A stretch of DNA of 55,207 bases, from positions 1 to 55,207 of the IMG/VR virus record IMGVR_UViG_3300006080_000002, one strand, 5' to 3'. Both the position numbers and the translations under genes were made by a program. A model generated the notes under the pieces. It ran no database searches. It was not told where the DNA came from and saw only the letters and a program-made list of their open reading frames with translations. Origin of the DNA: a virus. Lineage: Duplodnaviria; Caudoviricetes. Each line of letters starts with the position of its first letter. Position 1 is the stretch's first letter. Below are positions 1 to 46,034 of this stretch, piece by piece.

Positions 1-99
1 TATGCCCATGAATGGGTGCCAGCACGCAATCTTAACCTTCTGGCGCGGGCTGTTGCTATTGCAGAAGCTGAAAACTTTAGTGTTATCGCGCTCGGCAAT
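1..99. repeat. Terminal duplication of 55109-55207 (circular assembly overlap)
   Basis: Exact 99-nt identity with the last 99 nt; falls in the middle of a gene. Confidence 0.95.
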
Positions 100-420
100 A
101 ACCTCGAAGAATCGGGGGCTTACCCGGACAACGAACCGGAGTTCATTAACCGCTTTAACAAGATGTTAAATTTTGCTGTCGGTGATGGCAAAAACATCCG
201 AATCGAAATGCCGGTCGGCAACCTTATGAAGCATGAGATTGTCGCAGAAGGGCATAAACTGGGGGCACCGATGCACCTTACCTGGAGCTGCTACCGCAAC
301 GGCGATAAACACTGTGGTCACTGCGGCCCGTGCTTTATGCGCAAAACAGCTTTCGAAATTAACAGAATCAAGGATCCAATTTCCTATGAAAACAATTCAG
401 TTGACACTCAAGAAAGTTAA
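1..420 (+). CDS. queC: 3' part of Gat-QueC fusion (continues from 54170 across the assembly junction)
   Basis: Frame 1 from base 1 reads [10 protein letters not shown]...YPDNEPEF...[18 protein letters not shown] (QueC zinc motif); in frame with the ATG at 54170 through the 99-bp overlap. Confidence 0.95.
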
Positions 421-559
421 GGACACCAAAGGGACGTTCGTGTTTGGGGATGATAACCCTGACGCACCGATACCATCAGTGTACATCAAGAAATCAGCAT
501 TCCCTGAAGGCTGCCCGCAAACCCTTAAAGTAACTCTGGAAGCTGGAGAAAACGAATGA
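386..559 (+). CDS. Small hypothetical protein (57 aa) inside the deazaguanine operon
   Basis: ATG at 386 after AAGGA; stop overlaps the queD start (ATGA). Confidence 0.7.
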
Positions 560-1080
560 CAGTTATTACAGCAACTCGCTACCATGATTTCAGCGCCGGG
601 CACCGTGTTGTCGGCCATGAAAGCAAATGCCGCCATCTGCACGGGCACAACTACCGGGTTCACTTTTTCTGCAAAGCAACGGTACCGGATTTTTCACAGG
701 ACGTCGTTGAAATAACGCATTCCTTTGTTGGCCTGGATAATATTGGCCGCGTTATTGACTTTTCCGTAATCAAGGAACGGTTGTGCATGTGGCTCGAAAA
801 CAACTGGGATCACAAGTTTCTGCATTGGCAAAACGACCCAGTGATCGGACACTTGGAAAATCTTATTACCGATCGCCCGGATAAAGACTCCGGTGAGTGC
901 GAAGAAGAGATTTTCTTTATGCAATCCGTTGTACCATTGTCATTCAACCCAACCGCTGAAAATATGGCAGTTTACCTAGGAACTGTCATTGGCCCTAAAC
1001 AGCTCGAAGGTACTGGTGTGACGCTGTGTAAAGTTATTGTTGAAGAAACTGCTAAATGTTCTGCAAGCTGGGAGCTGTAA
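556..1080 (+). CDS. queD: 6-carboxy-5,6,7,8-tetrahydropterin synthase
   Basis: FSAGH, KCRHLHGHNY, VIDF, PTAENMA and EET motifs. Confidence 0.95.
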   Translation: MTVITATRYHDFSAGHRVVGHESKCRHLHGHNYRVHFFCKATVPDFSQDVVEITHSFVGLDNIGRVIDFSVIKERLCMWLENNWDHKFLHWQNDPVIGHLENLITDRPDKDSGECEEEIFFMQSVVPLSFNPTAENMAVYLGTVIGPKQLEGTGVTLCKVIVEETAKCSASWEL

Positions 1081-1668
1081 ATGAACGAGAAACTGATCGA
1101 ATTAGCGATGACGCAAATTCTGCACAACATTGAACCAAACCCAAACCCGAACGGCTTATTGCGTGAAGGTTTGCGTAAGACACCTCAGCGCGTTGCTAAA
1201 GCCATGACTGAATGGTTTGGCGGTGTTGGCGCGGACATTCCAAAGCTGTTAACCACATTTGAGGACGGAGCTGAAAATGCCGATGAAATGGTTGCTGTCT
1301 GCAACATCCCATTCTACAGCAAATGCGAACACCACCTCGCGGATATTATTGGCGTTGCCACTGTTGCCTATATTCCTAACGGTCGCATTGTTGGTCTGTC
1401 GAAGTTAAACCGCGTTGTGGACGCATTTGCCCGCCGCCCACAGGTGCAGGAGCGTATGACAAACGACATCGCAAACGCACTTATGGAACACCTGCGGCCT
1501 CTTGGCGTTGGCGTGCGTATTGCGGCCCGGCATATGTGCATGGAAAGCCGTGGTGTTAAGCAGCGCGGCCAGTTCACTATTACAACGGCAATCCGTGGGG
1601 CTATGAAAGACGAACCGGAAACCCGTGCCGAGTTCATGGCGTTGCCATTGGATACCGTAAACCTTTAA
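1081..1668 (+). CDS. folE: GTP cyclohydrolase I
   Basis: REGLRKTPQRVAKA, SKCEHHL, GLSKLNR, RPQVQER, HMCMESRG. Confidence 0.97.
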   Translation: MNEKLIELAMTQILHNIEPNPNPNGLLREGLRKTPQRVAKAMTEWFGGVGADIPKLLTTFEDGAENADEMVAVCNIPFYSKCEHHLADIIGVATVAYIPNGRIVGLSKLNRVVDAFARRPQVQERMTNDIANALMEHLRPLGVGVRIAARHMCMESRGVKQRGQFTITTAIRGAMKDEPETRAEFMALPLDTVNL

Positions 1669-1674
1669 TCCTGC

Positions 1675-1697
1675 CGGGGGCATTGCGCCCCCGTTTG
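1675..1697 (+). terminator. GC-rich hairpin between folE and dpdA (weak terminator or processing site)
   Basis: CGGGGGC-ATTGC-GCCCCCG followed by TTTG. Confidence 0.4.
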
Positions 1698-1708
1698 TGT
1701 GAGGACTT

Positions 1709-2626
1709 ATGCAGATTTATATTGCGGCTTTGCATACTAACGGATACAAGCATACCCAGCGTTACCAAAACCTCAACGAATTCGAACGCTCAATTGTACA
1801 CCGAGTTCCAAATATTCTCGAATCGTACCACTATATCCACAAGCAGAGTTTTGTCGACGCCATCCGTGAAAGTGGGGATAAAATATTCCTTGACTCCGGG
1901 GCGTTCTCGTCGTACACGCTCGGCAAAGAAATTGATCTTACCCAGTATTGCGACTACATTAAACGCAATATGGATATTATTCGATTTGAAGATGGGGTTA
2001 TGATGGCGTCTGTTTTGGACGGTATCGGCGACGTGGAATTAACCTACAAGAACCAATTGGCAATGGAAGCTCAGGGCGTTCGACCGTTGCCGTGTTTCCA
2101 CGCAGGTGAGGACGAGCGTTACCTGGATTGGTATGTGGCCAACTACGATTATATCACCCTTGGTGGTATGGTGGGGGCGTCAACCGAACAGCTTATGCGC
2201 TGGCTCGATCGTATGTGGGACAGGCATTTGACTGATGGTGCCGGGCGGCCAAAGATTAAGGTTCACGGCTTCGGTATTACATCCATTCCCTTGATGGTTC
2301 GTTATCCTTGGTATAGCTGTGACTCCTCGTCCTGGATCCAGGCCACTTCGTTCGGCTCTGTTGTAACTCCGGACTATGGCCCAATTGACGTATCGTGCAA
2401 ATCCCCGAACCGGCACGTTGCTGGGCAACACGCAACAACAATGAGCGAAGCCGAAAATATAAAGATTCGCCAGATGTTTGCCAGCCAAGGCTTTGACCTT
2501 GACCGGCTTGCTGAAGTTTACGAATCTCGGGCTGCGTACAACCTGTTCGGATACATGGAAATGAATAACTATGTTAATTCCAAAAATCCGGGTTTCTTTA
2601 AAGCTATCGATCAGGAGTTGTTTTAA
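1709..2626 (+). CDS. dpdA: TGT-fold DNA-guanine transglycosylase (DpdA-like)
   Basis: FLDSGAFS, LGGMV, VHGFG and SCDSSSW match the TGT catalytic-Asp motifs; lies in the preQ0/G+ biosynthesis cluster. Confidence 0.85.
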   Translation: MQIYIAALHTNGYKHTQRYQNLNEFERSIVHRVPNILESYHYIHKQSFVDAIRESGDKIFLDSGAFSSYTLGKEIDLTQYCDYIKRNMDIIRFEDGVMMASVLDGIGDVELTYKNQLAMEAQGVRPLPCFHAGEDERYLDWYVANYDYITLGGMVGASTEQLMRWLDRMWDRHLTDGAGRPKIKVHGFGITSIPLMVRYPWYSCDSSSWIQATSFGSVVTPDYGPIDVSCKSPNRHVAGQHATTMSEAENIKIRQMFASQGFDLDRLAEVYESRAAYNLFGYMEMNNYVNSKNPGFFKAIDQELF

Positions 2627-3588
2627 TGCTTGACGAACTGAAATTCGTGCAAGGGGCTGTTGCCAAGAAAGAATTCATCCCGGAGCTCACGCACTTTTGT
2701 ATTGAGAACAATACTGTCCGCAGCTTCAACGGTACGCTGGCCCTCTGTAGCCCGATTGACCTTGACATTTCGTGCAAACCAAAAGCGGCCCCGTTTGTTA
2801 AGGCTATCCAGAACTGCAAAGAAACTGTTTCGCTCTCAATGACCCCTGCCGGGCGGTTAAGTATTAAGTCCGGCGGCTTTAAGGCGTTTATCGAATGCGT
2901 AACTGAGGAAACCCCGCACGTTGTCCCTGAAGGTGAGATTCTTGACCTTAACGGGGACGCCTTTATCGAAGCCGTGGCAGCCCTGGAAACCTTTATTGGC
3001 GACGATGCTTCCCGTCCTTGGTCTACAGGCATACTGTTTGAAGGTAACAGTGCCTTTGCGACAAACAACGTCATTGCCGCCGAGTATTGGACGGGGCTGG
3101 GTATTGCCGGGCGGTATAACGTGCCTCGCTCTGCTGTCAAAGAGCTTCTACGCATCAAGCAAGCTCCAACACACATGCAAGTATCTGACAAGTCTATGAC
3201 CTTCCACTTTGAGGACGGACGCTGGATTCGAACTGCGTTGTTCTCGTTCGATGGTTGGCCGGATCTTCGCGGGTTGTTCGACTCCAACAGTGGGCAGAAG
3301 GCAACACCAATCCCGGAAGGTTTTTTCGATGCACTTACGGCAATTAAGCCGTTCCTGGATTCATTTAACCGTGTGTATTTCATTGATGGTTCTTTGTGTA
3401 CCAGCATTGTGGAAGGCGACGGTGCGTCTTACGAGGTCGAAGGGTTGGTGAGTGAAGGTGTGTTTAACCACACCATGCTCGAGCGAATCCGCCCAGTTGT
3501 TAAGTCCATTGATTTTAACGCCGAGGGCCGGGCTTGTATGTTTTATGGGGATAAGTTGCGCGGCGCGATTACAAGGGTGCGGAGTTAA
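2626..3588 (+). CDS. DNA polymerase sliding clamp (beta-subunit-like)
   Basis: 320 aa; DDASRPWSTGILF and ATNN resemble beta-clamp domain 2; translationally coupled to PolB. Confidence 0.75.
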   Translation: MLDELKFVQGAVAKKEFIPELTHFCIENNTVRSFNGTLALCSPIDLDISCKPKAAPFVKAIQNCKETVSLSMTPAGRLSIKSGGFKAFIECVTEETPHVVPEGEILDLNGDAFIEAVAALETFIGDDASRPWSTGILFEGNSAFATNNVIAAEYWTGLGIAGRYNVPRSAVKELLRIKQAPTHMQVSDKSMTFHFEDGRWIRTALFSFDGWPDLRGLFDSNSGQKATPIPEGFFDALTAIKPFLDSFNRVYFIDGSLCTSIVEGDGASYEVEGLVSEGVFNHTMLERIRPVVKSIDFNAEGRACMFYGDKLRGAITRVRS

Positions 3589-5723
3589 TGCGGAACGATA
3601 GTGATGGGCTGTTTTGGACAGACACAAACGACAAAATTGAAACAAGAAAAACCAAGCTTCTCGACAAAGGTTACGTTGAAGTTATGCCGGGCTTTTGGGC
3701 AGAGGCTTACCGGGTAGCCAAAGGCGACTACCGGCAGCACGTTTTGACGTTCGACAAGGCTTATGACCTTGTTAAGAACCAAGCCGAAAAGCGGACGCCG
3801 CCGGAGCCAGTGTGGTTAGAACCAACATACCTTCCAGGGCTGCAAGAGGCTCTGGAATTTAACGTTGACTTATTTACAGACGACGAGCTGGTTGAAGCAA
3901 GCTTCGACTGGATGTATGGTAAGAAGCACGAGCTGTCATTCGATATTGAGTGTTATGCCAACTATTTTCTGGTTGCATTTAAGTCGGTTACACTGGGTAA
4001 GGTTGTCTACTTTGAAATGGGGCAAGGACAATCATTAAACCTGCCGAAGCTGCGTTGGGTGCTTGACAACTTCCTTATCATTGGGTTCAACAGCAACGGG
4101 TACGACGTGCCAATGCTGCGCATTGCCTTTGCCGGGGCCAACACTGTGCAACTGAAAGTTGCAACAGCGTCCATAATCGAAGAGAGCATCAGACCCGGTG
4201 ATGTCGTGCGCCAATTTAAGGGCGTGAAGTTAGAGCTTGACCATGTTGACCTAATGGAAGTTGCCCCTCTGCGGGCAAGCCTGAAGATTTATGGCGGGCG
4301 GCTTAATTCTCGAAAGATGCAGGATTTGCCGTTTGCGCCAAACACAATCTTAAGCCCTGAGCAGATTGCTATTGTGCGCCTGTACTGTATCAACGACTTA
4401 GATACAACAATTGATCTCCGCAACGAGTTACGCAAGGAACTGGACTTGCGGGTAACCATGAGTAACGAATATGGGCTGGACTTGCGCTCCAAATCTGATG
4501 CACAAATTGCCGAAGCCGTTATTCGCAGTGAAATTGAAGCAATTAACCACACAAGACTTCATAGCCAGCACATTGAAGAAGGTACACGCTTCCGTTACCG
4601 GCCACCTGAGTATTTTAAGTATTTCCAGTCGCCTGAAATGCAAGGTGTTGTTGCGAGCATTACTAACCATGAATTCACTGTAGGCGAAAAAGGTAAGATT
4701 GGACTGCCTGAATTCATTAAGGCTATGCGAATAAACATTGGCAACAGCACGTATAAGATGGGTATCGGTGGTCTGCATAGTAGTGAAAAGAAAGCGGCCC
4801 ACTACAGCAGTGCAACTCACTTTTTAGTTGACCGCGATGTTACATCCTATTACCCGTTTATTATCTTAACCCTTGGCCTGTACCCGGAAAACCTTGGCCC
4901 GGTGTTCCTCACTATTTATCGCAGCATTGTTGAGCGCCGTATTGGGGCGAAAGTTGCTAAAATTAAATCTGTCGCGGAGACCCTGAAGATTGTTATTAAC
5001 GGTTCCTTCGGTAAGCTTGGGCAAGCCGGTTCAGTGTTGTACTCACCAAGCCTTTTAATCCAGGTAACAATCACCGGGCAGTTAGCCCTGCTGCTGCTTA
5101 TCGAGCAGCTTGAGCTTGCTGGGATACCTGTGGTCAGTGCTAATACCGACGGTGTTGTAATTAAGTGCCCGCGCGATAAAGAACACATTATGGATCAGAT
5201 TGTTGCTTGGTGGGAACAGGTCACACAATTTGAAACCGAGGCAACCTATTACAAGGCATTGTTCAGCCGCGACGTAAACAACTATTTGGCGGTGGTTGAA
5301 CCTAGCACATTGTCCGAAGGTGACGACCGGGTTAAAACCAAAGGCATTTTCAGCGACCCCGGCTTGAAGAAAAACCCGCAGAACTTTATTTGTGTTGAGG
5401 CTGTGATAAACCTTATTTGTGATAACATACCAATTGAGAAAACAATTCGTGAGTGCCGTGATATTAGCAAGTTCTTAAACGTGCGAACTGTTAAAGGCGG
5501 TGCGGTACGTGATGGCGTGTTCCTGGGTAAGGCGATTCGCTGGTACTACGCTGAAAACTATGGCGGTGAGATTGTGTATGCACTGACCGGGAATAAAGTG
5601 CCGAAGTCCGAAGGCGCCAAGCCAATTATGGAACTCAGCCCGGAGTTTCCAAACGATATTGATTATGCTTGGTATATTCGGGAAGCTGAAAAGCTTATGG
5701 TGAAGATTGGGGCTTACGGTTAA
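3588..5723 (+). CDS. Family B DNA polymerase
   Basis: Exonuclease motifs FDIE, GFNSNGYD, YCINDL; polymerase motifs DVTSYYP, KIVINGSFGK, SANTDG. Confidence 0.92.
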   Translation: MRNDSDGLFWTDTNDKIETRKTKLLDKGYVEVMPGFWAEAYRVAKGDYRQHVLTFDKAYDLVKNQAEKRTPPEPVWLEPTYLPGLQEALEFNVDLFTDDELVEASFDWMYGKKHELSFDIECYANYFLVAFKSVTLGKVVYFEMGQGQSLNLPKLRWVLDNFLIIGFNSNGYDVPMLRIAFAGANTVQLKVATASIIEESIRPGDVVRQFKGVKLELDHVDLMEVAPLRASLKIYGGRLNSRKMQDLPFAPNTILSPEQIAIVRLYCINDLDTTIDLRNELRKELDLRVTMSNEYGLDLRSKSDAQIAEAVIRSEIEAINHTRLHSQHIEEGTRFRYRPPEYFKYFQSPEMQGVVASITNHEFTVGEKGKIGLPEFIKAMRINIGNSTYKMGIGGLHSSEKKAAHYSSATHFLVDRDVTSYYPFIILTLGLYPENLGPVFLTIYRSIVERRIGAKVAKIKSVAETLKIVINGSFGKLGQAGSVLYSPSLLIQVTITGQLALLLLIEQLELAGIPVVSANTDGVVIKCPRDKEHIMDQIVAWWEQVTQFETEATYYKALFSRDVNNYLAVVEPSTLSEGDDRVKTKGIFSDPGLKKNPQNFICVEAVINLICDNIPIEKTIRECRDISKFLNVRTVKGGAVRDGVFLGKAIRWYYAENYGGEIVYALTGNKVPKSEGAKPIMELSPEFPNDIDYAWYIREAEKLMVKIGAYG

Positions 5724-5785
5724 GCCCCTGTAACGCCCGGCACGCGGTGCAGCCGGTTAGGCGCGGTAAAGCTATTGCCGGGCAT

Positions 5786-5806
5786 AAAAAAGCCCCAGTA
5801 CGGGGC
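5786..5806 (-). terminator. Intrinsic terminator ending the late (tail) transcript
   Basis: On the - strand GCCCC-GTACT-GGGGC-TTTTTT, in the convergent intergenic gap. Confidence 0.65.
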
Positions 5807-5827
5807 AAAGAATTGGTATGCGCAGGC

Positions 5828-6886
5828 TTACGGCTGCCGCAACCCGCGTATTTTTACAAAACTCACTTGGTTGACAGTAGTTGCGGGGTCTTTATGCGAA
5901 AATATCTGCGCTGTGCTCCCTGCCGTGTTTACCGTCATAAAGTACCCACCGGGCTGATTGGTTTCTACCAACGCCCTGCGCCCCGGCTTATGCTGGTTAG
6001 TAAACTCGATGCCTTCGAAAGTTAAAACCGCGTCAGGGTCGGTGGCAGGATTGCTCGGTTTACAAGTGACTTCTAATTTTTGAATTACACCTGCGGCAAA
6101 TTGCTGTATGCTGAACTCGTTTGCCCAGTAAAAATTCGCTACTAAACCGCTGACGTATGTTGTCCACTGGCTAACAGTATCCAACGGGCGATTCTCAAAT
6201 GGCTTCGTCAATGCCTGTGCAAAGGTTGGCAACCCCAGATCCGGAATGGCTGGGTATCCCGCAGGAGGAACCGCATCGAATTTTAAATTGAACGCGGTGT
6301 TGTTATTTCCTTTCACATGAACAGCAACAGACTTCATATCCAAGCATTGGTCATTAAGCGGGTATTGTGAACCACCTTGGTCAATATACAGAACCCCATT
6401 AACTCGGCGAAGCAACAACGCCGGGTCGGTAACGTAGAGGTTTATCGGCCAATTAGGGGCACCGTTTTTCCGGGACATAACTGGTACAACGCGCCATTTA
6501 CTGTTCTGCCAAATAATTCGGAAAGCACCAAAACCTGCATCCGTTTGGCTGGATGGGTTAACGATGCGGTTTTGGCTGAACGCAACTGTAAAGTCAACAA
6601 CAGTTGAATAAGTAATGTCCCAAGTAATTAACGTGCTGAAATCGCCGTCCAGGGAGCCGTCCAGCTCGTAGCGGGCACCAGTTGCCCCGCTACTTTGCGC
6701 AGCTATGTTGATTTCAAGCGGTGTTGGCTGCTCTACTTGCAGGGTTGCTGAAGTATCTGCTATCTCGTTTGTAAACGTTTTAGCAATCTTAAACAACCCA
6801 AGATCGGCTGAAGGAGCACCGCCGCCGGAGTTAAGTTTTGTCCGTACAGCAGAGCTCAGCGCAGTCTCTTCAATAAGGTTAGCCAT
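5828..6886 (-). CDS. Putative receptor-binding/tail fibre protein
   Basis: Last gene of the tail module; short helical N-terminus, GGG linker, beta-rich body. Confidence 0.55.
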   Translation of the reverse strand: MANLIEETALSSAVRTKLNSGGGAPSADLGLFKIAKTFTNEIADTSATLQVEQPTPLEINIAAQSSGATGARYELDGSLDGDFSTLITWDITYSTVVDFTVAFSQNRIVNPSSQTDAGFGAFRIIWQNSKWRVVPVMSRKNGAPNWPINLYVTDPALLLRRVNGVLYIDQGGSQYPLNDQCLDMKSVAVHVKGNNNTAFNLKFDAVPPAGYPAIPDLGLPTFAQALTKPFENRPLDTVSQWTTYVSGLVANFYWANEFSIQQFAAGVIQKLEVTCKPSNPATDPDAVLTFEGIEFTNQHKPGRRALVETNQPGGYFMTVNTAGSTAQIFSHKDPATTVNQVSFVKIRGLRQP

Positions 6887-18574: not shown

Positions 18575-18975
18575 TTCAACTTCTTCGCGTTTTCAGCAAC
18601 CAACCGTTCCCAACTTAAAGCGTTAATACGAACCATACCTTCTGGCGCTTGGCGAGAATGGCCGTATTCAATTGGTTCGGCATACGGGAGATTGTTTGTT
18701 AGATAAATTGATTGGTAAGCCGCCAAACCTTCAACGTTCTTTAATACGTCTTTAATTCGGTTAATTGTTGCAGTACCAACCGGCGCACCTGCAGACGTTG
18801 TTTCATCGCTTGGCACACCGATAGCGCAGAACCAATTATTCCGAAGCACGCCACGGTGAACCGGAGTGCCAATAACCACATTGGTGAACAGGTCTAAGGC
18901 TGCTCCGCGCTTTATCTTTGCATGGCGGTCTTCTACCTTCTTACGGAACGCTGCTAACTGATCACCAAATGCCAT
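18571..18975 (-). CDS. Tail completion/neck protein (HK97 gp10-like)
   Basis: TPVHRGVLRNNW and NNLPYAEPIEYGHSRQAPEGMVR. Confidence 0.85.
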   Translation of the reverse strand: MAFGDQLAAFRKKVEDRHAKIKRGAALDLFTNVVIGTPVHRGVLRNNWFCAIGVPSDETTSAGAPVGTATINRIKDVLKNVEGLAAYQSIYLTNNLPYAEPIEYGHSRQAPEGMVRINALSWERLVAENAKKLK

Positions 18976-19331
18976 TACGTCACATCCAGCATATAAACAA
19001 CTACAATATCCGCAGGCTTAATGGCGACAAGCTTGTCCATCTCAAACCAACGTCCGTCAACCTCAATGGTTTCACCCGGTTGCGGGTTAGCATCGTGGCT
19101 AAGGATCAGTGTTTTGGTTGCTTCCCAGCTAACTACACCGAGGGCCATACTGCGGGCGGTTTGCTGGTCGGCAACTATGCCAGTTACGCTGCGCCCTTGG
19201 CCCGGTGTTGTGGTTAGCGTTGCCGGGCTTGGGGTAGCCTTACCCCGCACCGTAAAAGCCCGGCCAAGGGCCGTAAAAACGGGCGCAATGTCGGCAATGA
19301 CGCCTTGGTAAAACGCATCTGAAGCTGCCAT
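18975..19331 (-). CDS. Head closure protein
   Basis: Synteny; PQPGETIEVDG..IKPA. Confidence 0.65.
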   Translation of the reverse strand: MAASDAFYQGVIADIAPVFTALGRAFTVRGKATPSPATLTTTPGQGRSVTGIVADQQTARSMALGVVSWEATKTLILSHDANPQPGETIEVDGRWFEMDKLVAIKPADIVVVYMLDVT

Positions 19332-19947: not shown

Positions 19948-19975
19948 AAGTTGCGGGCATTGCGCCCGCAACTTT
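19948..19975 (-). terminator. Intrinsic terminator after the capsid operon
   Basis: AAAGTTGCGGGC-N5-GCCCGCAACTTT perfect inverted repeat. Confidence 0.65.
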
Positions 19976-20576
19976 AGTTCAGAATGCCGAGGGCACGCTG
20001 TTCTTTATCGCTTAAAACCGCACGGAGAGCTTCGTTACGTTCAGCCAGTGCTTCACGTTCTTTGCGGCCCTGTTCCTGATAGCGCTTAATCTGCTCAGCA
20101 AAGGTTTCTTCTTTGCCTTTGGCTTCTTCCAAAGCCTTGGTGTGGGCTTCCTGTGCATCACGGAAAGCACGGTCTGCTTTCGCACGGGCCTGATCTGCTT
20201 CTTCCAGGGCTTTAGCTGCCGCAGCAACTGGATCTTCTGTAGCCACAGAATCACCTTCGCCAGCGTCGCCAGCGTCTTCGTCCGCGCCAGTTACAGGGTC
20301 AGCGGGTGCAACAGGTGCAACAGGTGCAACAGGTGCAACAGGTGCAACAGGTGCAACAGGTGCAACAGGTGCAACAGGTGCTTCAGCTTTGACCTTTGCG
20401 GCTTGTGCTGCCACACGGCTAAAGCCCGGCCCAGCTGCCGTAATCTGATCACGGGTAACAGGCTTACCAACCAGATCTTTCACAACGTCCAAACGCGGCA
20501 GGCCATCTGCTGTCCAATGGTCGTTATTGTCCGGATCGAGTTTAGCGAGCGCTGCAATAATTACTTCATTGCTCAT
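19974..20576 (-). CDS. Capsid-adjacent hypothetical protein with (APV)8 linker
   Basis: N-terminal LDPDNNDHWTADGLPRLD domain, Pro linker, C-terminal coiled coil; follows the major capsid gene. Confidence 0.75.
   Translation of the reverse strand: MSNEVIIAALAKLDPDNNDHWTADGLPRLDVVKDLVGKPVTRDQITAAGPGFSRVAAQAAKVKAEAPVAPVAPVAPVAPVAPVAPVAPVAPADPVTGADEDAGDAGEGDSVATEDPVAAAAKALEEADQARAKADRAFRDAQEAHTKALEEAKGKEETFAEQIKRYQEQGRKEREALAERNEALRAVLSDKEQRALGILN
20305..20381. repeat. Perfect 9-bp tandem repeat GGTGCAACA, about 8.5 copies
   Basis: Read directly; encodes Ala-Pro-Val repeats on the - strand. Confidence 0.95.
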
Positions 20577-28276: not shown

Positions 28277-28795
28277 TTATTCACGCACGGTTTGCTTTAG
28301 TTTAGCCTGTGCGGTTGAAGCGGCCTGCTCCCAAGCGTCAATCCCAGGAATATGCGGAACTTCCATCACGCCACCTTGTGCCGCTACACCGTTCACTTTA
28401 GGATCGGACATTTGGTCTAGGCCAACAATTGACGCAAGCTTTGCAAATGCGCTCACCCGTGCCGAGTGTGATGCGCCCGGCCCGTTATAATGGGCCTCGC
28501 GAAGCAAACCCTGAATAATTCGGTTTTGATATGTTTGGCGAAGGCTTTTATCGTCTGCGCTAAGCCGATCCATCTGCTCACGAATGCGTTTGCGAACATA
28601 CGGCTCGGACATAAATGCTTTGGAATATTGCTGGGCAATTTGCCCGCCATTGAAGCCGACTCGAATGGCAGCCCCATAGCTGTCGAAATCGATTAAATAT
28701 TCGGCAACAAAAAGCTCGCGTAATGCGAGCTCATTTTCACTGTAGTTCTGCTCGATAAGCGTTTCGATGCAGTCGTCAATAAAATCTGGTTCCAT
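28277..28795 (-). CDS. terS: Terminase small subunit
   Basis: FVAEYLIDFDSYGAAIRVG HTH motif; ARVSAFAKLA. Confidence 0.8.
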   Translation of the reverse strand: MEPDFIDDCIETLIEQNYSENELALRELFVAEYLIDFDSYGAAIRVGFNGGQIAQQYSKAFMSEPYVRKRIREQMDRLSADDKSLRQTYQNRIIQGLLREAHYNGPGASHSARVSAFAKLASIVGLDQMSDPKVNGVAAQGGVMEVPHIPGIDAWEQAASTAQAKLKQTVRE

Positions 28796-28839
28796 AACCA
28801 GTGCTCCGGCACACAAGACACCATTGTCCTATGTGCTGG

Positions 28840-28868
28840 AGTATAACCACACTCTCAGGCTAGGGCAA
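28840..28868 (-). promoter_or_regulatory. Promoter for the terS-lysis-terL operon
   Basis: TTGCCC-17 nt-TATACT. Confidence 0.55.
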
Positions 28869-28873
28869 CTTGC

Positions 28874-29359
28874 CTATCGTGGCGTCGTGTATGCGTGCGC
28901 CGCTTCAGTATCAAGCCAGCGGTTTGCATAATCCAAAAACCAATGTTTAAACATGCTGAATTCAATTTCAGCGTCCACACCGTGAAGCATAGTTGGGTTT
29001 CCTGCTGTTGGTGTATCCAGGCTCAGACAGCACAACATCCGGCAGCGCCAGGACTTGCGGTTCTGGCGGAACAACAGGATTGGAATGTTGTTCTGGCGGC
29101 GGGCACTGGCCTCACACTGGCGCCACCAGCTAGGCACGGACAGATTTTCCTGCCGTTTAACTTCAATGCTGAGGCGCATAGGGTTTGTGAGGTCGTCCCC
29201 GCCAACCGCGCTTTGGTTCTGGTTGCGTTGAAACGGGCGGTCTTCAACTGCAGGAATCTTGTAACCTTTGCGGATACAGGCTTCGTCAAACCAGTTGTTC
29301 AACAGGGTAGCAATTTCACGCTCCCCGGTTTGGCCTTTTGTACGGGCGTTGATTGTCAT
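28874..29359 (-). CDS. Holliday junction resolvase-like PD-(D/E)XK nuclease
   Basis: KGQTGEREIA, GGDDL, IEVKRQE. Confidence 0.75.
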   Translation of the reverse strand: MTINARTKGQTGEREIATLLNNWFDEACIRKGYKIPAVEDRPFQRNQNQSAVGGDDLTNPMRLSIEVKRQENLSVPSWWRQCEASARRQNNIPILLFRQNRKSWRCRMLCCLSLDTPTAGNPTMLHGVDAEIEFSMFKHWFLDYANRWLDTEAAHAYTTPR

Positions 29360-29402
29360 ACTGTTCCCTTAATGGGTTAGCCCGGCGAACCGGGCGTTGT
29401 GG

Positions 29403-29609
29403 TTAGAGGTAGCCCATGTAAGCAGCTACCGCGAAAAAGGTGCGAGGGATTGGGACTTCAACTTTCCCGGCGCGCCACAGGTAAAGATCCTGAAAGCTAA
29501 CATCCGTCGCTTCTGCAATTTCAACTATTTCGTTGTATTGCAGATCTTCGAGCTCTTCACAGATTTCCTGGAAAACGCTAATGAACTCTTGAACTTGTTT
29601 TGAATGCAC
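29403..29609 (-). CDS. Small HTH DNA-binding protein
   Basis: EIAEATDVSFQDLYLWRAG HTH pattern; AGGAG RBS. Confidence 0.7.
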   Translation of the reverse strand: MHSKQVQEFISVFQEICEELEDLQYNEIVEIAEATDVSFQDLYLWRAGKVEVPIPRTFFAVAAYMGYL

Positions 29610-29641
29610 TGTTTTCTCCTTTAGTTGCTAAGTGCAGGTGC

Positions 29642-29670
29642 AGCATATGAACTAATATCAAGTGATGCAA
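29642..29670 (-). promoter_or_regulatory. Promoter for the HTH gene
   Basis: TTGCAT-17 nt-TATGCT. Confidence 0.5.
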
Positions 29671-29673
29671 CAC

Positions 29674-29907
29674 TTATTCGCAACCAAATGGAATTTTATT
29701 ACCGGAAGCCTTTGCCCAAGCCGCTTGGCCGTGGCTGTCGTAATGGCCAGCCAACCAAGCGCAGCGCAGCCCTACGGCGTTTACAGCATAAGGGCAAGGG
29801 CTACCCGCCGGGGCAGCCCAACCGGCCCGGTATTGGGCGTTATAGTTGTTGGGTACACCGGAAATCGGGTATTTTAACGGGTGCTCAGTGTCAACTCGCC
29901 TTTTCAT
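29674..29907 (-). CDS. Rmf-like small protein
   Basis: YRAG...CPY......RCAWLAG resembles the ribosome modulation factor pattern YxAG...CPY...RxxWLxG. Confidence 0.5.
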   Translation of the reverse strand: MKRRVDTEHPLKYPISGVPNNYNAQYRAGWAAPAGSPCPYAVNAVGLRCAWLAGHYDSHGQAAWAKASGNKIPFGCE

Positions 29908-30200: not shown

Positions 30201-30596
30201 TTAAAACTGAAACTTGTATGACAAGTTAACGGCATTTCCAAAGAACATCAAATTAACGTTTGATAGCTCCATGTAGACACCAATAACCGGAAGCGGGTAG
30301 TTATCCGGCTCCGGCGGCTTTTCTTCTGCATCCCAACGGCAGTATCCGTAGATGCACGAACCCTTATACCCGGTCACAAGTGCGGTTAATACACCAGCCG
30401 AATAATTCCATTCATAGTTTCGTGTTTGCTCGAATTTCTTTCCGATAAGGTACGACCGGCTGAAGTAAGAATTTACCATTGTTGCTGCAAAATAATCCTT
30501 GTATTCAACAGCGACAACTTGGTTATCCTCGTTCAGGTAAGTTGAATCTCCAATGTGGGCCGTCATTAGCCCAACGTACAAAGCGACTTCAAACAT
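30201..30596 (-). CDS. Putative small beta-barrel protein
   Basis: Alternating beta pattern, C-terminal YKFQF; AGGAGG RBS. Confidence 0.5.
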   Translation of the reverse strand: MFEVALYVGLMTAHIGDSTYLNEDNQVVAVEYKDYFAATMVNSYFSRSYLIGKKFEQTRNYEWNYSAGVLTALVTGYKGSCIYGYCRWDAEEKPPEPDNYPLPVIGVYMELSNVNLMFFGNAVNLSYKFQF

Positions 30597-30810
30597 GGGC
30601 CACCTCCTTGACCACATAATCCCAACCATGCTCCCGCGCCCGTGCGTGTGGGTTTTGTAACCCCAAGGATGTGAACATTTCCGCGTCTACCATACTGTGG
30701 CGGCGCAGTGCGGCGAACGGGTGGGCTGCTTCAACGGTTTCCGTTACGTGTAACGGTTCATCGTCCAACAGTGTTACAGTGACTTCGTACTTTAGCTTTT
30801 TCTGTTCCAT
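30589..30810 (-). CDS. Hypothetical protein
   Basis: First gene after the promoter at 30836-30863. Confidence 0.6.
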   Translation of the reverse strand: MEQKKLKYEVTVTLLDDEPLHVTETVEAAHPFAALRRHSMVDAEMFTSLGLQNPHARAREHGWDYVVKEVAHV

Positions 30811-30911: not shown

Positions 30912-31048
30912 CCCGTCAAGCACCAACGAAACACAACCGAACAAGGAATGTTAGTGAAATTGGTGCAACAGAGGCAAGGCCAAATCCCAGTGACCTTTCT
31001 ACCACGACAACAGTCCGAGGTAAGAACAACGCGGCAGCCCCTGCCAGC
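30874..31048 (-). ncRNA. Candidate small non-coding RNA (about 170 nt)
   Basis: Bounded by the promoter at 31055-31083 and the terminator at 30874-30911; no ATG-started ORF within the predicted transcript. Confidence 0.45.
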
Positions 31049-31054
31049 GCTGTT

Positions 31055-31083
31055 ACTATGGCAAAAGTACTAGGGCTTTGCAA
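31055..31083 (-). promoter_or_regulatory. Promoter of the candidate sRNA
   Basis: TTGCAA-17 nt-CATAGT. Confidence 0.55.
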
Positions 31084-31090
31084 GCCTTTG

Positions 31091-31441
31091 TTAACAGGAT
31101 TTTTTAACAATGTGTAAATTATCCCTGTCCCATGCCACCTTCAGGTTCTTGAACCCCTTTTTGTGCAGGTACTTTTCAACCTTGATGCGAATGGTACAGC
31201 GTTCGGCTTCCGTGTACGGGTTCTGCCCGTCTTCACGGTAGTAGACATCCAAGTACTTAATACAGCGCCCATAAATGTTTGTCGCAGTGTGTTCTTTTGC
31301 CTTTTTGGTCCGGTACAGTTTGACATATTCCAAACCGTTATCCCACAGTACAGTTTTAACAGCATCGGCCACCTTTTGGTTTCGTTGGTCAATGTCGACG
31401 CCCTTTTGCAAAGAACGCAAAACTAAATGTTTATAAGCCAT
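31091..31441 (-). CDS. Hypothetical basic protein
   Basis: GGAGG RBS before ATG 31441. Confidence 0.65.
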   Translation of the reverse strand: MAYKHLVLRSLQKGVDIDQRNQKVADAVKTVLWDNGLEYVKLYRTKKAKEHTATNIYGRCIKYLDVYYREDGQNPYTEAERCTIRIKVEKYLHKKGFKNLKVAWDRDNLHIVKKSC

Positions 31442-37651: not shown

Positions 37652-38133
37652 AGTTCGGTTGCCCAGTTTGATGGTAGTTTAGCTGCGGTTATGGCCGCAG
37701 CTCGTTGTTCATGTGTTAAGCCCGGCATAATATGCCTGAAGAAGAACGGGTTAGCAAGTTGCGCAATATGGCCAGCCATAGTCCGGAAGTTGTCAGTAGT
37801 CATTGCACCCCGTGCCATCTGGAACGTTACGTTGTACTGTACACCGGGGCAAACGTCCACACTTACTTGAACATGAATACACTTTTGGTATGTGCAACCG
37901 GGCTCATTAATCGATGGCTCGTCCTGTGTGCAGTAATAGTCAACAAATATGGCATTTGCCAGCACTACATTACCGCACCAGAATGAACCACGGGACAGGG
38001 CGTGCTTTTGGCTGTACCTGCGCCCATCATGAATGGTTAGCCCATAGCCTTCCATATAATGTTCAACCGCTGCAACAACATCCGCAGCGGTTGGAACAAC
38101 CTGTTGAACAGTACCTGCATTATTAAAGGCCAT
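37648..38133 (-). CDS. Hypothetical protein
   Basis: GGGGA RBS before ATG 38133. Confidence 0.65.
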   Translation of the reverse strand: MAFNNAGTVQQVVPTAADVVAAVEHYMEGYGLTIHDGRRYSQKHALSRGSFWCGNVVLANAIFVDYYCTQDEPSINEPGCTYQKCIHVQVSVDVCPGVQYNVTFQMARGAMTTDNFRTMAGHIAQLANPFFFRHIMPGLTHEQRAAAITAAKLPSNWATEL

Positions 38134-38239
38134 TACACATCCCCCACAAGCATTCAACTGGGAGGGTTTGACTAACCACAAGCGAGGCCAAAGCAACCAG
38201 CGCTCCGATCACGTAATGTTTTTGTTTTACCTTGCGCAT
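38123..38239 (-). CDS. 38-aa small membrane protein, first leftward early gene
   Basis: AAGGA RBS; MRKVKQKHYVIGALVALASLVVSQTLPVECLWGMCNGL; below the ORF-track cutoff. Confidence 0.6.
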   Translation of the reverse strand: MRKVKQKHYVIGALVALASLVVSQTLPVECLWGMCNGL

Positions 38240-38272
38240 TTGTGAATTCCTTTGTTGTTTGTTGATATTCAG

Positions 38273-38300
38273 ATTATAGCAGCTTTTGCAGGCGTTGCAA
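38273..38300 (-). promoter_or_regulatory. Main leftward early promoter
   Basis: TTGCAA-16 nt-TATAAT. Confidence 0.75.
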
Positions 38301-38339
38301 TACCCCTAGTGCAAGTTGCAAGAAAGTCGCTTGATTACT

Positions 38340-38880
38340 GTACGTTTTTTAACCAAAAGTTATTAACATTCAAGGTTAATAAATGTTAATAAAATGTTAA
38401 TTTTGTACAAAAAATGCACAGCTTTTAAATTGGCAAAAGTGAGGGGGTTGGTTGAATAAATTTTATTTGTCGGTGACGATTTTGGCAAAGCTAAAAACGG
38501 GGCTTTTTTATTAACCAAAAAACCAACTTATAACATTAAAATAACCAGTATGGTTAATCGCTGTAAGCCCCGTAAATACTGGGTTAAATAATAATATATA
38601 TATAAAAATTAACATTATTAACCTAGTAAGGGGGGTAAAACGTATATTTATAGGAACCCATCAAAATTCAAAATGCACACCTTTTAGAACCACCCCCTAA
38701 AAATACCCCCTAACACCCCGACGGCCCAAAAATGTTAAAAATGTTAAAAACTGGTTATTTCATACACCAGCGTTTTACAAATGTTAATTTTTGGGTTAAT
38801 TTTTGCCAGCGGTTAATAGTAACCCTAACTTTTAACATTTTTAAAAACACACCCCCTTATTAACATTTGCAAAAGGTAAA
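38340..38880. other. AT-rich non-coding divergence region with AATGTTAA/TTAACATT repeats (candidate origin or genome-end region)
   Basis: No ORF; about 9 copies of the 8-mer in both orientations; central TA run. Confidence 0.55.
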
Positions 38881-38884
38881 ACCC

Positions 38885-40024
38885 ATGCAAACACCAGCAA
38901 ACCCAACCAATAACGAACTGCCCGGCCAAGGGCAACCAATGGAACAAGCGGCACAGCCAACTGTGCAGCCCGCCAGCCCGGCCCCAGCGGCTAACCCTGT
39001 GCAACCCCCTGCCCAACCCGTACAAACGGCCCCAGCGCACGCACAGGCCGTACAACCACACATCGCAGCGGCCACGGTGCATGACTTAGTGGAGGAGGTT
39101 GGCGGCATTATGCACCTGTGCCTAAAAGCGGCTGCACCGGGCCAACAGGAAACGCGATACGCTTGGCTGCCCTCTATGGTGTCCAATGTGGTTAAAAGCT
39201 ATTCATTCAGTAACCCTTGGCCACATTGCCATCCACAGGTTCCGGACGACGTAAACAACCCGTTCAACTTCGCGCTTAGTAACGAGCCGGGGTTGCCTCT
39301 GTGCCTGGAGCTGTCCCCGCAGTTCAAAGGCATTGTTGGCGAAGCCCGTTACCGTGATGACAGCTTTATCATGGAACCACTGGAAGGCGATTCAATGCGT
39401 CTGCCCCATGTGCCGCTGCCGCACGAATACCACGAGCTGCTTTTCGGGCCGGGCAAACCTGATTACACTGACAGGGAAAAGACCGCACTGATTAATCATT
39501 TTATCCCTTTAATCGGTATGGCATCATGCCCGTACAATATGCTTGGCGGCATGGTGTTGGTGGATACGGAAGCTGTGCTTTTAAACTGCTATCGCTTTTA
39601 CCTCAAAATGCACGCTGAGCGGCAAGCACGGGCAGACGCTGTTTACACTCCGGAAGTGCTGGCCAGCGACGCACCAGTTAAGGCCGCCATTGAACGGCGC
39701 CGTGAACTGCAACGCCAGCGCCGGGAAGCTCGTGAAGCGCGTGCGGCGGAACGTAAAGCTGAGCGTGAGGCCAAGCGGGCGGAACGTGAGGCGAAAGCGG
39801 CTAACCGGAAAGTCAGTGCCGAGGCGTATCAGGAATGGCTTGCCAAATGCACGGCTAAGCGTGAGCGTATTGAAGACATCCGCGCACAAATTGAGCAGGC
39901 CCGTATCACACGCGATGAGGAAATTGAAGCTCTGCAGGATGAATGGCGTAAAGCCATTGGTTTGTTGGAGCAGGAGTTGCGTGATGTTAAGGGTGAGCCG
40001 GTTGGTACAGTGCCCGGCAACTAA
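38885..40024 (+). CDS. Hypothetical protein, Q/P-rich N-terminus and charged coiled-coil C-terminus
   Basis: First rightward gene; AAGG RBS. Confidence 0.75.
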   Translation: MQTPANPTNNELPGQGQPMEQAAQPTVQPASPAPAANPVQPPAQPVQTAPAHAQAVQPHIAAATVHDLVEEVGGIMHLCLKAAAPGQQETRYAWLPSMVSNVVKSYSFSNPWPHCHPQVPDDVNNPFNFALSNEPGLPLCLELSPQFKGIVGEARYRDDSFIMEPLEGDSMRLPHVPLPHEYHELLFGPGKPDYTDREKTALINHFIPLIGMASCPYNMLGGMVLVDTEAVLLNCYRFYLKMHAERQARADAVYTPEVLASDAPVKAAIERRRELQRQRREAREARAAERKAEREAKRAEREAKAANRKVSAEAYQEWLAKCTAKRERIEDIRAQIEQARITRDEEIEALQDEWRKAIGLLEQELRDVKGEPVGTVPGN

Positions 40025-40027
40025 CCG

Positions 40028-40056
40028 TTGCGATTTTACAACAGGGCGGGTATAGT
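40028..40056 (+). promoter_or_regulatory. Promoter for the HTH-primase operon
   Basis: TTGCGA-17 nt-TATAGT. Confidence 0.6.
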
Positions 40057-40089
40057 TACCGGCCCTGCTAATATTTACGGAGTCAACAA

Positions 40090-40332
40090 ATGTCTGAACA
40101 CGAAACAACCCCGCAAGAACGCTTTGACGCGCTGTATATCACCAGTAACGAAATCCAGGAACGTATGGGCGTTGTACGCTCAAGCATCCTGCACGCTCGC
40201 CAGCGGGGTATGCTTCCTGACCCTATTATGGTTCGCGGTGTCAACACTTTTATTTGGGAACGTGACGGTATCGAAGAGTACCTCAAAAGCTGGGAACTTT
40301 CGCTAAAGTCTCGTCGCGGTGAACTGAACTAA
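40090..40332 (+). CDS. AlpA/excisionase-like wHTH DNA-binding protein
   Basis: EIQERMGVVRSSILHARQRGMLPDPI...W. Confidence 0.65.
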   Translation: MSEHETTPQERFDALYITSNEIQERMGVVRSSILHARQRGMLPDPIMVRGVNTFIWERDGIEEYLKSWELSLKSRRGELN

Positions 40333-42758: not shown

Positions 42759-42773
42759 ATAAGCGTTTTTATA

Positions 42774-42802
42774 TTGCAACAACCAATTGGGCGTTGTAAT
42801 AT
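42774..42802 (+). promoter_or_regulatory. Sigma70-type promoter
   Basis: TTGCAA-17 nt-TAATAT. Confidence 0.7.
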
Positions 42803-42837
42803 AACCACACCTACCACAACCAACAGGAGGGCCACTT

Positions 42838-43290
42838 ATGGCCGAGTTAAACCATAACGCTGATGTAATCACTGTAGAAGAATTGTCCTACTGGGAGAAG
42901 TTGGCGCGTCAGCTTTCGCAAATTAAAACGGAAGAGATTACGCTCCGCAAGCGTATCTTTGAAGTTATGTTCCCGGATGCTGGCGAAGGAACCAACACCC
43001 ACCCTCTGGCCAATGATTACGTGCTGAAAGCAAGCTACCCTTTCACACGTGATATTGACGAAGGTGCATTGGCTGCTATGCAGGATGAACTGAAAGCTGC
43101 CAACGTGCCAATGGACACCCTTGTCAAGTACAAGCCAACCCTGTCGAAAAGCACTTATAACAAACTGACCGAAGAACAGCGCAAGCTTGTTGACCAGTTT
43201 ATTATTTGCCGCCCCGGCAGCCCGGCGCTGGAAATTTCGCTGCCAAAGCGTAAGCCGAACTTTACTTCAACCGGGCATCTGGCCCTGTAA
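42838..43290 (+). CDS. Hypothetical replication-module protein
   Basis: AGGAGG RBS; 150 aa. Confidence 0.75.
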   Translation: MAELNHNADVITVEELSYWEKLARQLSQIKTEEITLRKRIFEVMFPDAGEGTNTHPLANDYVLKASYPFTRDIDEGALAAMQDELKAANVPMDTLVKYKPTLSKSTYNKLTEEQRKLVDQFIICRPGSPALEISLPKRKPNFTSTGHLAL

Positions 43291-45809: not shown

Positions 45810-46034
45810 ATGGAACAAAAGCATGTAAACCGTGTTTATCTTGGTGGCCCGTTCAGCGGATTTCCTGCGGCCACCAGCACACCCGGAACATTGACGTTCA
45901 CAGTTGAATCAAAAGTTGTTAACCCGCGCTGGAATCACAAGAACCACCAGCCAAAATTTATCCGTAAAAAGTTTCACGGATATTACGATAACCAGAACTA
46001 TTGGGTGGATGGCCCAAAAACAGCCGTCACTTAA
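45810..46034 (+). CDS. Hypothetical protein
   Basis: GGGGA RBS; packed after the ligase. Confidence 0.6.
   Translation: MEQKHVNRVYLGGPFSGFPAATSTPGTLTFTVESKVVNPRWNHKNHQPKFIRKKFHGYYDNQNYWVDGPKTAVT

Follow-up and report, generated by a model that had tools for sequence, protein, structure and literature searches.

The genome and the island at the end of the polymerase gene

We analysed a whole IMG/VR virus record of 55,207 bp (IMGVR_UViG_3300006080_000002, hereafter the window) for stretches of DNA that contain neither the dinucleotide GA nor its complement TC, with a focus on one such island at 5706-5810, at the end of the DNA polymerase gene. By PHROG and Pfam scans the window is a Queuovirinae-like siphophage. 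Positions 1-99 and 55109-55207 are identical, an exact 99-nucleotide (nt) terminal overlap that leaves ~55,108 unique bases, and because an open reading frame (ORF) for a Gat-QueC fusion reads unbroken across this overlap, the assembly is either closed into a circle or terminally redundant. A rightward block of replication and modification genes starts at 38885, reaches the genome end and continues through 1-5723, and a leftward block of structural, lysis and small genes runs from 38196 down to 5828. The rightward block encodes the DNA guanine transglycosylase DpdA, followed by clamp and family-B DNA polymerase genes, and a preQ0 pathway set (FolE, QueD, QueE and QueC, identified with Pfam and PHROG) lies beside dpdA.

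The nearest named phage is Alteromonas phage R7M (Queuovirinae), with a polymerase 58% and a DpdA 67% identical to those of the window. The DpdAs of Iggy, CAjan, 9g and PaMx25 are 57-63% identical; these tblastn identities are full-length, as are the HMMER matches of the window DpdA to all five proteins. A Pfam scan of DpdA gave no TGT match at E 1e-3 or better. The Gat-QueC fusion is common to the window and phage 9g, so dG+ is the modification predicted for the window phage, by analogy with 9g.

The island at 5706-5810 (105 nt) spans the last polymerase codons and runs on into the intergenic gap 5724-5827 between the convergent genes; the one GA between 5706 and 5863 is at 5810. It consists of three GC-rich hairpins and contains 10 copies of GGC or GCC. 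A GC-rich hairpin followed by a T-run is found on the minus strand only, the plus-strand hairpins having no T-run. The first-pass annotation of this DNA had read such islands as places where selection keeps origin, promoter and terminator DNA free of the phage's own modification. Since the hairpins of this island act as RNA, a need for unmodified DNA there is not obvious.

GA/TC-free runs exceed chance expectation

GA and TC occur at 5253 sites in the window, a frequency of 0.095. All nine GA/TC-free runs listed by the first-pass annotation were reproduced to within one base: 5706-5810, 29739-29861 (123 nt), 31025-31098 (74 nt), 38559-38654 (96 nt), 38761-38915 (155 nt), 38943-39063 (121 nt), 42747-42827 (81 nt), 46028-46114 (87 nt) and 52342-52519 (178 nt, the longest). 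Five further runs were absent from that list: 47378-47503 (126 nt), 19169-19291 (123 nt), 20300-20383 (84 nt), 38479-38558 (80 nt) and 43813-43891 (79 nt). The accompanying estimate of chance for a 100-nt run, (7/8)^100, supposes even dinucleotide use (0.125) and does not fit the actual frequency. Under a geometric null at 0.095, the lengths at which 1 and 0.05 gaps are expected (E=1 and E=0.05 thresholds) are 86 and 116 nt, and 9 and 6 gaps of at least these lengths were seen. AG/CT, identical to GA/TC in base make-up and nearly so in frequency (0.10), has no gap longer than 65 nt. The geometric null is not too lenient: of the 14 named phages without dpdA, 13 have 0-2 gaps that reach the E=1 length of the genome concerned, and the lone exception, VP882, has 3.

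Protein sequence explains some of the coding gaps. We resampled all genes in 400 replicates that kept protein sequence, codon usage and the bias at the junction of codon positions 3 and 1. This codon-aware null gave a GA/TC total of 5329 +/- 45, against 5253 observed, and 1.36, 0.62 and 0.27 coding gaps of at least 86, 100 and 116 nt, against 5 observed in each case; no replicate had more than 3 gaps of at least 100 nt. Its longest gap averaged 103 nt, and one of the 400 replicates reached 235 nt. Coding islands account for eight of the 15 longest, and Asp and Glu are missing from their peptides, so that amino-acid composition accounts for part of these islands but not for their number. Across 120-nt windows, the distribution departs from the codon-aware null just by a slightly heavier lower tail. 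Gene-level differences were considered as a source of the islands and rejected: the per-gene z score has a standard deviation of 1.36, and no gene is GA/TC-free.

For ORF-free DNA, we used shuffles that preserved the base composition of each of 28 segments. GA/TC was observed 203 times against 355 expected, and AG/CT 292 times against 354; 30 of the 203 remaining GA/TC sites are at a Shine-Dalgarno position. The depletion, which the first-pass annotation had proposed to check against composition- and codon-preserving shuffles, thus persists under the geometric, codon-aware and per-segment nulls. Several islands are tandem repeats or low-complexity sequence, and a resampled genome can contain a 235-nt gap, as noted above; nevertheless, with all three nulls rejected and a maximum AG/CT gap of 65 nt, chance or plain base or amino-acid composition is hardly credible as the explanation.

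GA/TC under-use across the genome

Of the 10 dinucleotide classes, GA/TC ranks last in the window, with a relative abundance (rho*) of 0.76 overall, 0.77 in ORFs and 0.55-0.58 in ORF-free DNA. Codon positions 1-2, where GA begins the Asp and Glu codons, are the sole position at expectation (GA 1.05). At positions 2-3 the values are 0.36 for GA and 0.68 for TC, and at the codon 3-1 junction 0.70 and 0.59, the bottom two of 16 dinucleotides there and near the ORF-free value. The AA/TT value is 1.33. Among longer words, GATC has 93 copies and an observed/expected ratio (O/E) of 0.73, TCGA has an O/E of 1.21, and GAA is undepleted among GA-containing trinucleotides. GGC is not under-used (Markov-1 O/E of 1.02); GGC and GCC together occur at 0.09-0.12 per base in the GC-rich islands and 0.084 in the nine longest islands pooled, compared with 0.041 genome-wide.

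Islands in non-coding control DNA

No compartment of the genome is poorer in GA/TC than its non-coding control DNA. Seven of the 15 longest islands are mostly non-coding and eight lie in ORFs. The seven are the terminator gap after the polymerase gene, four pieces of the divergent control region (38371-38441, 38479-38558, 38559-38654 and the start of 38761-38915) and two short gaps that contain promoter-like sequence (Table 1). The first-pass annotation had placed the runs at regulatory DNA, which holds for the terminator gap, the control region and the promoter gaps, but not for four of its nine runs, which are in ORFs; for two of these four, the runs at 38943 and 52342, it had itself noted a coding location.

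The control region contains nine of the ten genomic copies of the 8-mer AATGTTAA/TTAACATT, in both orientations and within 38363-38867, several of them nested in GGTTAATTTTT-type repeats. A short motif with many copies in both orientations, in an AT-rich gap next to the replication block, has the features of an iteron array, and the AATGTTAA cluster probably serves a phage DNA-binding protein as iterons or operators. All five promoter-like sites that we located in the window read TTGC at the -35 element (TTGCAA twice, TTGCCA, TTGCAC and TTGCCC) and none reads TTGACA. These sites are consensus matches, and the three found in 38100-39000 compare with 3.0 in shuffles. TTGACA or TGTCAA occurs at 29 sites genome-wide, near the chance number, with none in the ORF-free control regions examined. 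One perfect TTGACA lies at 5871-5876, in the 3' end of ORF 5828-6886 and just beyond the interval that the first-pass annotation had described.

Islands in coding DNA

The coding islands are of two kinds. Some are in Q/P/A-rich or repetitive sequence, among them the longest island of the genome, whose 58 codons contain no GA/TC against 9.1 expected from protein sequence and codon usage (0 of 5000 resamplings site-free), and the island at 47378-47503, an in-frame repeat with a 15-nt unit. Others, at 19169-19291, 29739-29861 and 31025-31098, are ordinary-looking coding sequence; the first has no GA/TC against 9.0 expected, and again 0 of 5000 resamplings were site-free. Structured RNA was rejected as a cause of the coding islands: fold z scores of -1.65 (19169-19291), -0.48 (29739-29861) and -0.68 are no notable excess over shuffles, and an Rfam scan of the whole window returned no family at gathering score.

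Table 1. Features of the window (P, probability of zero GA/TC sites; ".", no strand assigned)
Feature	Coordinates	Strand	Description
QueD	556-1080	+	Pfam PTPS, PHROG
FolE	1081-1668	+	Pfam GTP_cyclohydroI, PHROG
DpdA, DNA guanine transglycosylase	1709-2626	+	phrog_887, E 5e-82
Perfect 8-bp hairpin GGGGCTTA / TAAGCCCC	5709-5728	+	Over polymerase stop codon; no T-run
ORF-free segment	5724-5827		GA/TC 1 seen, 12.9 expected, z -4.2; AG/CT 9 vs 12.4
Longer GC-rich stem GCCCGGCA ... TGCCGGGC	5735-5783	.	Fold z -1.4 (+ strand), -2.4 (- strand)
Intrinsic-terminator-like hairpin, then TTTTTT	5792-5806	-	At end of leftward structural operon
Island in head-closure (Hc1-like) gene	19169-19291	-	Gene 18975-19331; not low-complexity
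Tandem-repeat island, 9-nt unit GGTGCAACA (+ strand)	20300-20383	-	APV repeats, in frame, ORF 19974-20576
Island in small ORF	29739-29861	-	ORF 29674-29907; phrog_35883, E 3e-6; P 0.001
Island in small ORF	31025-31098	-	ORF 30916-31110, without family; P 0.003
ORF-free segment	38197-38866		GA/TC 24 seen, 73.8 expected, z -7.8; AG/CT 45 vs 73.8
AT-rich divergent control region	38197-38884	.	Between leftward block end 38196 and rightward ATG 38885
Promoter-like TTGCAA-16-TATAAT	38273-38300	-	TG before -10; faces leftward operon; no GA/TC
Promoter-like TTGCCA-17-TAAAAT	38460-38488	-	3 GA/TC in spacer
Q/P/A-rich N-terminal island	38943-39063	+	ORF 38885-40024, without Pfam or PHROG family
Island over gap after primase gene	42747-42827	+	TTGCAA-17-TAATAT at 42774-42802
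ORF-free segment	42759-42837		GA/TC 1 seen, 9.2 expected
Q/P/A-rich linker island	43813-43891	+	ORF 43290-44867; P 0.048
Island over gap before Sak4-like gene	46028-46114	+	Extended -10 TGTTATAAT at 46064-46072
ORF-free segment	46035-46098		GA/TC 0 seen, 7.8 expected
GGMQ/GGMP tandem-repeat island	47378-47503	+	C-terminal part of SSB-like gene 46826-47662; P 0.005
Longest island, 178 nt	52342-52519	+	Q/P/A-rich part of ORF 51924-52538
ORF-free segment	53373-53473		GA/TC 4 seen, 11.7 expected
QueE	53474-54169	+	Pfam/PHROG
Gat-QueC fusion	54170-55207, continuing 100-420	+	Pfam GATase_7 and QueC in one ORF

Elsewhere in the window, the small ORF 40028-40306, which separates the genes of the Q-rich protein and the primase, is richer in GA/TC than its protein and the codon usage of the genome predict (27 vs. 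17.4 expected, z +2.9). Its neighbours show the opposite, and it may have been acquired recently or be called in the wrong frame. ORF 30201-30629, one of the small leftward genes, matches in part (residues 14-96) a family of PagP-like lipid A acylation proteins (phrog_3600, E 2e-14). A megablast search against phages returned no match to the window, and no close relative was found in searches of IMG/VR with DpdA alone, of metagenome contigs with the polymerase or of genome contigs with the tail fibre. Tail-fibre matches are weak and mixed (Vibrio, Acinetobacter and Ralstonia phages), and endolysin relatives, at 35-48% identity, are scattered over unrelated bacteria; neither points to a host.

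Comparison with unrelated named phages

We compared 15 named dpdA+ phages with 13 dpdA-less phages of E. coli, Pseudomonas, Vibrio and Acinetobacter, calling genes in these other genomes by a crude longest-ORF method. Nine dpdA+ phages (R7M, CAjan, 9g, Vid5, Iggy, pVco-14, CA8, V1.117.O and HD01) have rho* of 0.75-0.94. Six from GC-rich hosts (6/16 named dpdA+ phages) show no deficit, at 1.12-1.16, and the dpdA+ Klebsiella phage K4PH164 is at 0.96. The 13 dpdA-less phages have rho* of 0.91-1.21, and O/E in ORF-free DNA shows the same split. Iggy also has a TA value of 0.81, vs. 0.48-0.66 in seven other Pseudomonas phages, dpdA+ or not.

There are nine gaps at or above the E=1 threshold in the window, 11 in Iggy, 6-8 in three Nipunavirus-type phages and 0-3 elsewhere. 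The Nipunavirus-type islands are in Q-rich coding DNA of phages without a genome-wide deficit, and in CAjan, R7M, PaMx25 and Iggy the longest gaps fall in orthologous Q-rich stretches. Exceptional islands are missing from CAjan and R7M. The dpdA-less Vibrio phage VP882 contains a 194-nt GA/TC-free gap, so such runs can arise without DpdA. The dpdA+ Vibrio phage pVco-14 (rho* 0.81) has four promoter-like sites with a perfect TTGACA -35 element, counter to the trend among dpdA+ phages.

With 9 of 15 dpdA+ phages below host-matched controls, this panel suggested a DpdA-specific footprint, an interpretation that was dropped after lineage-controlled tests. The controls of the panel are unrelated phages, and we therefore sought dpdA-less members of the same polymerase lineage.

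The deficit within the polymerase lineage

A polymerase alignment yielded 589 IMG/VR relatives, of which 80 loci were retrieved and 50 examined for DpdA, leaving out 17 loci on contigs under ~20 kb and the 13 lowest-ranked. DpdA was present in 33 records and absent from 17; the same 17, and the complete dpdA-less Acinetobacter phage Loki, also have neither QueC nor phrog_887, and two positive controls were detected. The fraction of records with rho* below 0.9 is 14/33 with dpdA and 8/17 without (medians 0.92 and 0.96; Mann-Whitney p=0.64), and median ORF-free O/E is 0.90 and 0.92. Loki, whose polymerase is 47% identical to that of the window, has a rho* of 0.81 and an ORF-free O/E of 0.69, while two unrelated Acinetobacter phages have a rho* of 0.97. 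Whole genomes were compared for records with a completeness of 90% or more, namely 11 of 12 with dpdA and all six without, and for the dpdA-less G024, which is 70% complete. In the dpdA-less G032 (90% complete), GA/TC is the lowest-ranked class, with a rho* of 0.78 and an ORF-free O/E of 0.70; the dpdA-less G024 and G040 have rho* of 0.86 and 0.87 and ORF-free O/E of 0.70 and 0.79.

The general GA/TC deficit is not tied to DpdA. Equal depletion in relatives without dpdA was the outcome that the first-pass annotation had named as counting against its proposal, and for the general deficit this is what the lineage shows. The deficit follows lineage and not host, because the unrelated dpdA-less phages of the same hosts are all (13/13) at 0.91-1.21. 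Within the polymerase-relative loci, rho* climbs with GC content (Spearman 0.61).

These data bear on two further explanations. One is that DpdA itself drives a mutational decay, error-prone base exchange at GA eroding the dinucleotide as CpG is eroded under methylation. The deficit is indeed strongest at weakly constrained positions, and the raised AA/TT of the window and TA of Iggy would fit. Relatives without DpdA and QueC are equally depleted, however, six named dpdA+ phages have no deficit, dinucleotide correlations are confounded by host GC, and 9g, reported to replace up to 27% of its G (PMC6884629), has a rho* of 0.94; we consider such decay very improbable. The other is avoidance of host restriction or defence targets that contain GA or TC, or of a physical property of DNA that GA/TC steps disturb. 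A deficit that is lineage-wide across several hosts and a GATC O/E of 0.73 are in keeping with this. Yet 93 copies of GATC remain, TCGA is over-represented and GAA undepleted, most longer GA-containing words do not appear to account for the deficit given the dinucleotide content, and unrelated phages on the same hosts lack it, which together make this explanation unlikely.

A proposed lineage-wide pressure and a possible clearance of GA from control DNA

The runs themselves, their excess over the nulls, their locations and the deficit of dpdA-less relatives are shown directly by the analysis. The reading that we tentatively prefer, while giving it slightly less than an even chance, is that one DNA-level pressure against GA/TC, lineage-wide and independent of DpdA, yields the islands. 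They would be the extreme tail of a GA/TC under-use across siphophages that share the family-B polymerase module, holding at least for the low- and mid-GC members of the lineage, with or without DpdA. Proteins that need GA or TC, chiefly for Asp and Glu codons, would hold the deficit back. It would come to full expression in non-coding control DNA (terminator hairpins, the AT-rich iteron and promoter region, short promoter gaps) and in Asp/Glu-free coding DNA (Q/P/A/G-rich linkers, tandem repeats), in which synonymous codons and the junctions between codons may leave enough freedom to strip every site. Repeats that happen to be GA-free, such as the AATGTTAA iterons, the G/C-only stems and the 9- and 15-nt tandem units, would then extend the runs. 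Candidate causes of the pressure are a mutation bias of the replication module or selection unrelated to DpdA. That a single pressure lies behind both the coding and the non-coding compartment is something we infer.

Several observations weigh against this reading. The codon-aware null already holds the average deficit and expects 0.62 coding gaps of at least 100 nt where 5 were found, so the pressure must be locally uneven, and one of the islands, 19169-19291, lies in unremarkable coding sequence. In the five non-coding regions with the strongest depletion, chosen post hoc, 30 GA/TC sites were seen where 115 are expected, a ratio of 0.26 compared with ~0.65 at the codon 3-1 junction. Absence of dpdA from incomplete records is no proof of absence, and dpdA may have been lost recently. 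Gaps beyond the E=0.05 threshold occur in 10/33 dpdA+ and 0/17 dpdA-less loci (p=0.010); non-coding gaps that reach the E=1 threshold are found in 6/12 dpdA+ genomes (window included) and 0/8 dpdA-less genomes (p=0.042), and, among genomes with rho* below 0.9, in 6/7 and 0/4 (p=0.015). In the 12 dpdA+ genomes there are 11 such non-coding gaps for GA/TC and 2 for its compositional twin AG/CT. Finally, A is scarcer at position 4 of the -35 element in dpdA+ genomes. We scored this with position 4 uncounted and at least 8 of the other 11 consensus positions matched: A was found at 24/127 sites in the window plus 15 named dpdA+ phages (16 genomes) vs. 14/34 in 13 dpdA-less named phages (p=0.011), at 15/69 vs. 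13/32 in the IMG/VR relatives (p=0.059), and at 39/196 vs. 27/66 pooled (p=0.001). The lineage contrasts come from small, confounded samples, and several were chosen post hoc.

The island contrast is shared by other dinucleotides. Non-coding gaps are found for CG in 5/12 dpdA+ and 1/8 dpdA-less genomes, and for CC/GG in 6/12 and 2/8. It thus partly reflects the AT-rich control regions of the larger dpdA+ genomes, whose AT-rich non-coding regions have long gaps for CC/GG, CG and GC as well. The non-coding islands of the relatives are AT-rich iteron regions, and the GA/TC-free region of one of them (G038) carries the GGTTAATTTT motif of the window. The most extreme case is ~1.25 kb of another relative (G010, ~28446-29701) with five GA/TC sites and gaps of 141, 112, 137, 260 and 368 nt; this stretch is partly non-coding and partly in a long ORF.

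The contrasts between dpdA+ and dpdA-less genomes raise the possibility, which we regard as doubtful but serious, that dpdA+ phages have, atop the lineage background, cleared GA from DNA that is read by proteins, namely -35 hexamers, iterons or operators and perhaps other sites. The -35 element would have been recoded from TTGACA to TTGCNN, and promoter gaps and iterons or operators would have been kept GA-free. Host RNA polymerase and phage DNA-binding proteins could then meet an equal surface on fresh unmodified and on mature modified DNA, and the islands might be a sequence-readable map of unmodified DNA; to these parts we extend the same guarded credence. Orthologous DpdAs are reported to modify GA near saturation (PMC7544227, PMC10484667). 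Transcription by bacterial RNA polymerase is reported to be almost abolished on templates with 7-vinyl-, 7-ethynyl- or 7-phenyl-7-deazaguanine, a block that the authors put at initiation and for which they implicate the guanine of the -35 TTGACA, a G followed by A (PMC4838386). The window's five promoter-like sites, all TTGC, the scarcity of A at -35 position 4, and the restriction of extreme and non-coding islands to dpdA+ members of the lineage agree with such clearance, as does the placement of 30 of the 203 leftover ORF-free sites at Shine-Dalgarno positions, where function is in RNA.

Against clearance stand, first, the general deficit, which is not linked to dpdA, and the coding location of about half of the long islands, which have no known DNA-level role there. 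The island after the polymerase gene consists of terminator hairpins acting as RNA, and the GC-rich islands are 2-3x enriched in GGC/GCC, the second motif of the CAjan enzyme, while GGC is not under-used in the genome. CAjan and R7M lack exceptional islands, pVco-14 keeps its four TTGACA sites, and VP882 has its long gap without DpdA. The dpdA+/dpdA-less contrast for CG and CC/GG is similar, and the promoter sites are consensus-only, the gene calls crude, the samples small and several tests post hoc. The proposal of the first-pass annotation, that selection keeps origin, promoter and terminator DNA unmodified, therefore survives in part: control DNA is indeed GA/TC-poorest and the DpdA is orthologous, but dpdA-less relatives share the deficit, about half of the long islands are coding and GGC/GCC is enriched in the GC-rich ones.

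If GA has been cleared from control DNA, this would be a rule by which hypermodifying phages reconcile protective base modification with gene control, and unmodified regions, perhaps even enzyme specificity, could be read from sequence. Otherwise, what is left is a GA/TC deficit common to a large lineage of siphophages that encode a polymerase, together with a caution: the unrelated-phage panel by itself would have wrongly linked the deficit to DpdA.

Comparison with known systems

Restriction-site avoidance in phages and CpG depletion under cytosine methylation are examples of short-word under-representation tied to a DNA-modifying or DNA-cutting activity, and both are strongest under weak coding constraint. 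The present case differs from both examples in that the phage would be avoiding a word which its own protective enzyme modifies, and in that the lineage-controlled test does not tie the deficit to DpdA.

In the open full-text literature searched, we found nothing on a GA/TC deficit, on control regions free of GA or on TTGC-type promoters in such phages, apart from a remark on the GA count of Iggy (below). The main texts of the CAjan and Iggy papers hold no mention that we found of intergenic DNA, promoters, avoidance or depletion (PMC7544227, PMC10484667).

In CAjan, a Seuratvirus, DpdA is reported to insert dPreQ0 at GA and GGC, with nearly all such sites modified (PMC7544227), in agreement with the motif given in the first-pass annotation. 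CAjan resembles the window in its orthologous DpdA (57%), gene cluster, genome type and mild deficit (rho* 0.87, GA/TC being the lowest-ranked class). Unlike the window, its QueC has no amidotransferase fusion, and two of its gaps reach the E=1 threshold, neither of them reaching E=0.05. GGC, the second CAjan motif, is the one enriched in the window's GC-rich islands, which would be heavily modified if the window DpdA had the same dual motif; if the enzyme is CAjan-like, the islands do not avoid all of its motifs.

Phage 9g shares the Gat-QueC fusion with the window. Its Gat-QueC and DpdA are reported to place dG+ in DNA, at up to 27% of G (PMC6884629), and 26.3% of its G is in a GA context, close to the reported level. 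Unlike the window, it has almost no deficit (rho* 0.94) and no islands.

Iggy is unlike the window in its polymerase (43% identical) and its modification, dPreQ0, which its DpdA is reported to place strictly at GA, ~97% of these sites being modified (PMC10484667). The same paper reports a lower count of GA sites, which its main text does not treat as avoidance. Like the window, Iggy has a related DpdA (60%), a low rho* (0.79, where four Pseudomonas phages without dpdA have 1.07-1.21), many long gaps (11 reach the E=1 and four the E=0.05 threshold, the longest being 171 nt) and a GA/TC-free region with G-runs, as in the window's control region. Should the window DpdA be GA-only like that of Iggy, the islands would be stretches of unmodified DNA, as a consequence and not necessarily a cause, and the non-coding control DNA, being GA/TC-poorest, would carry little or no modified G.

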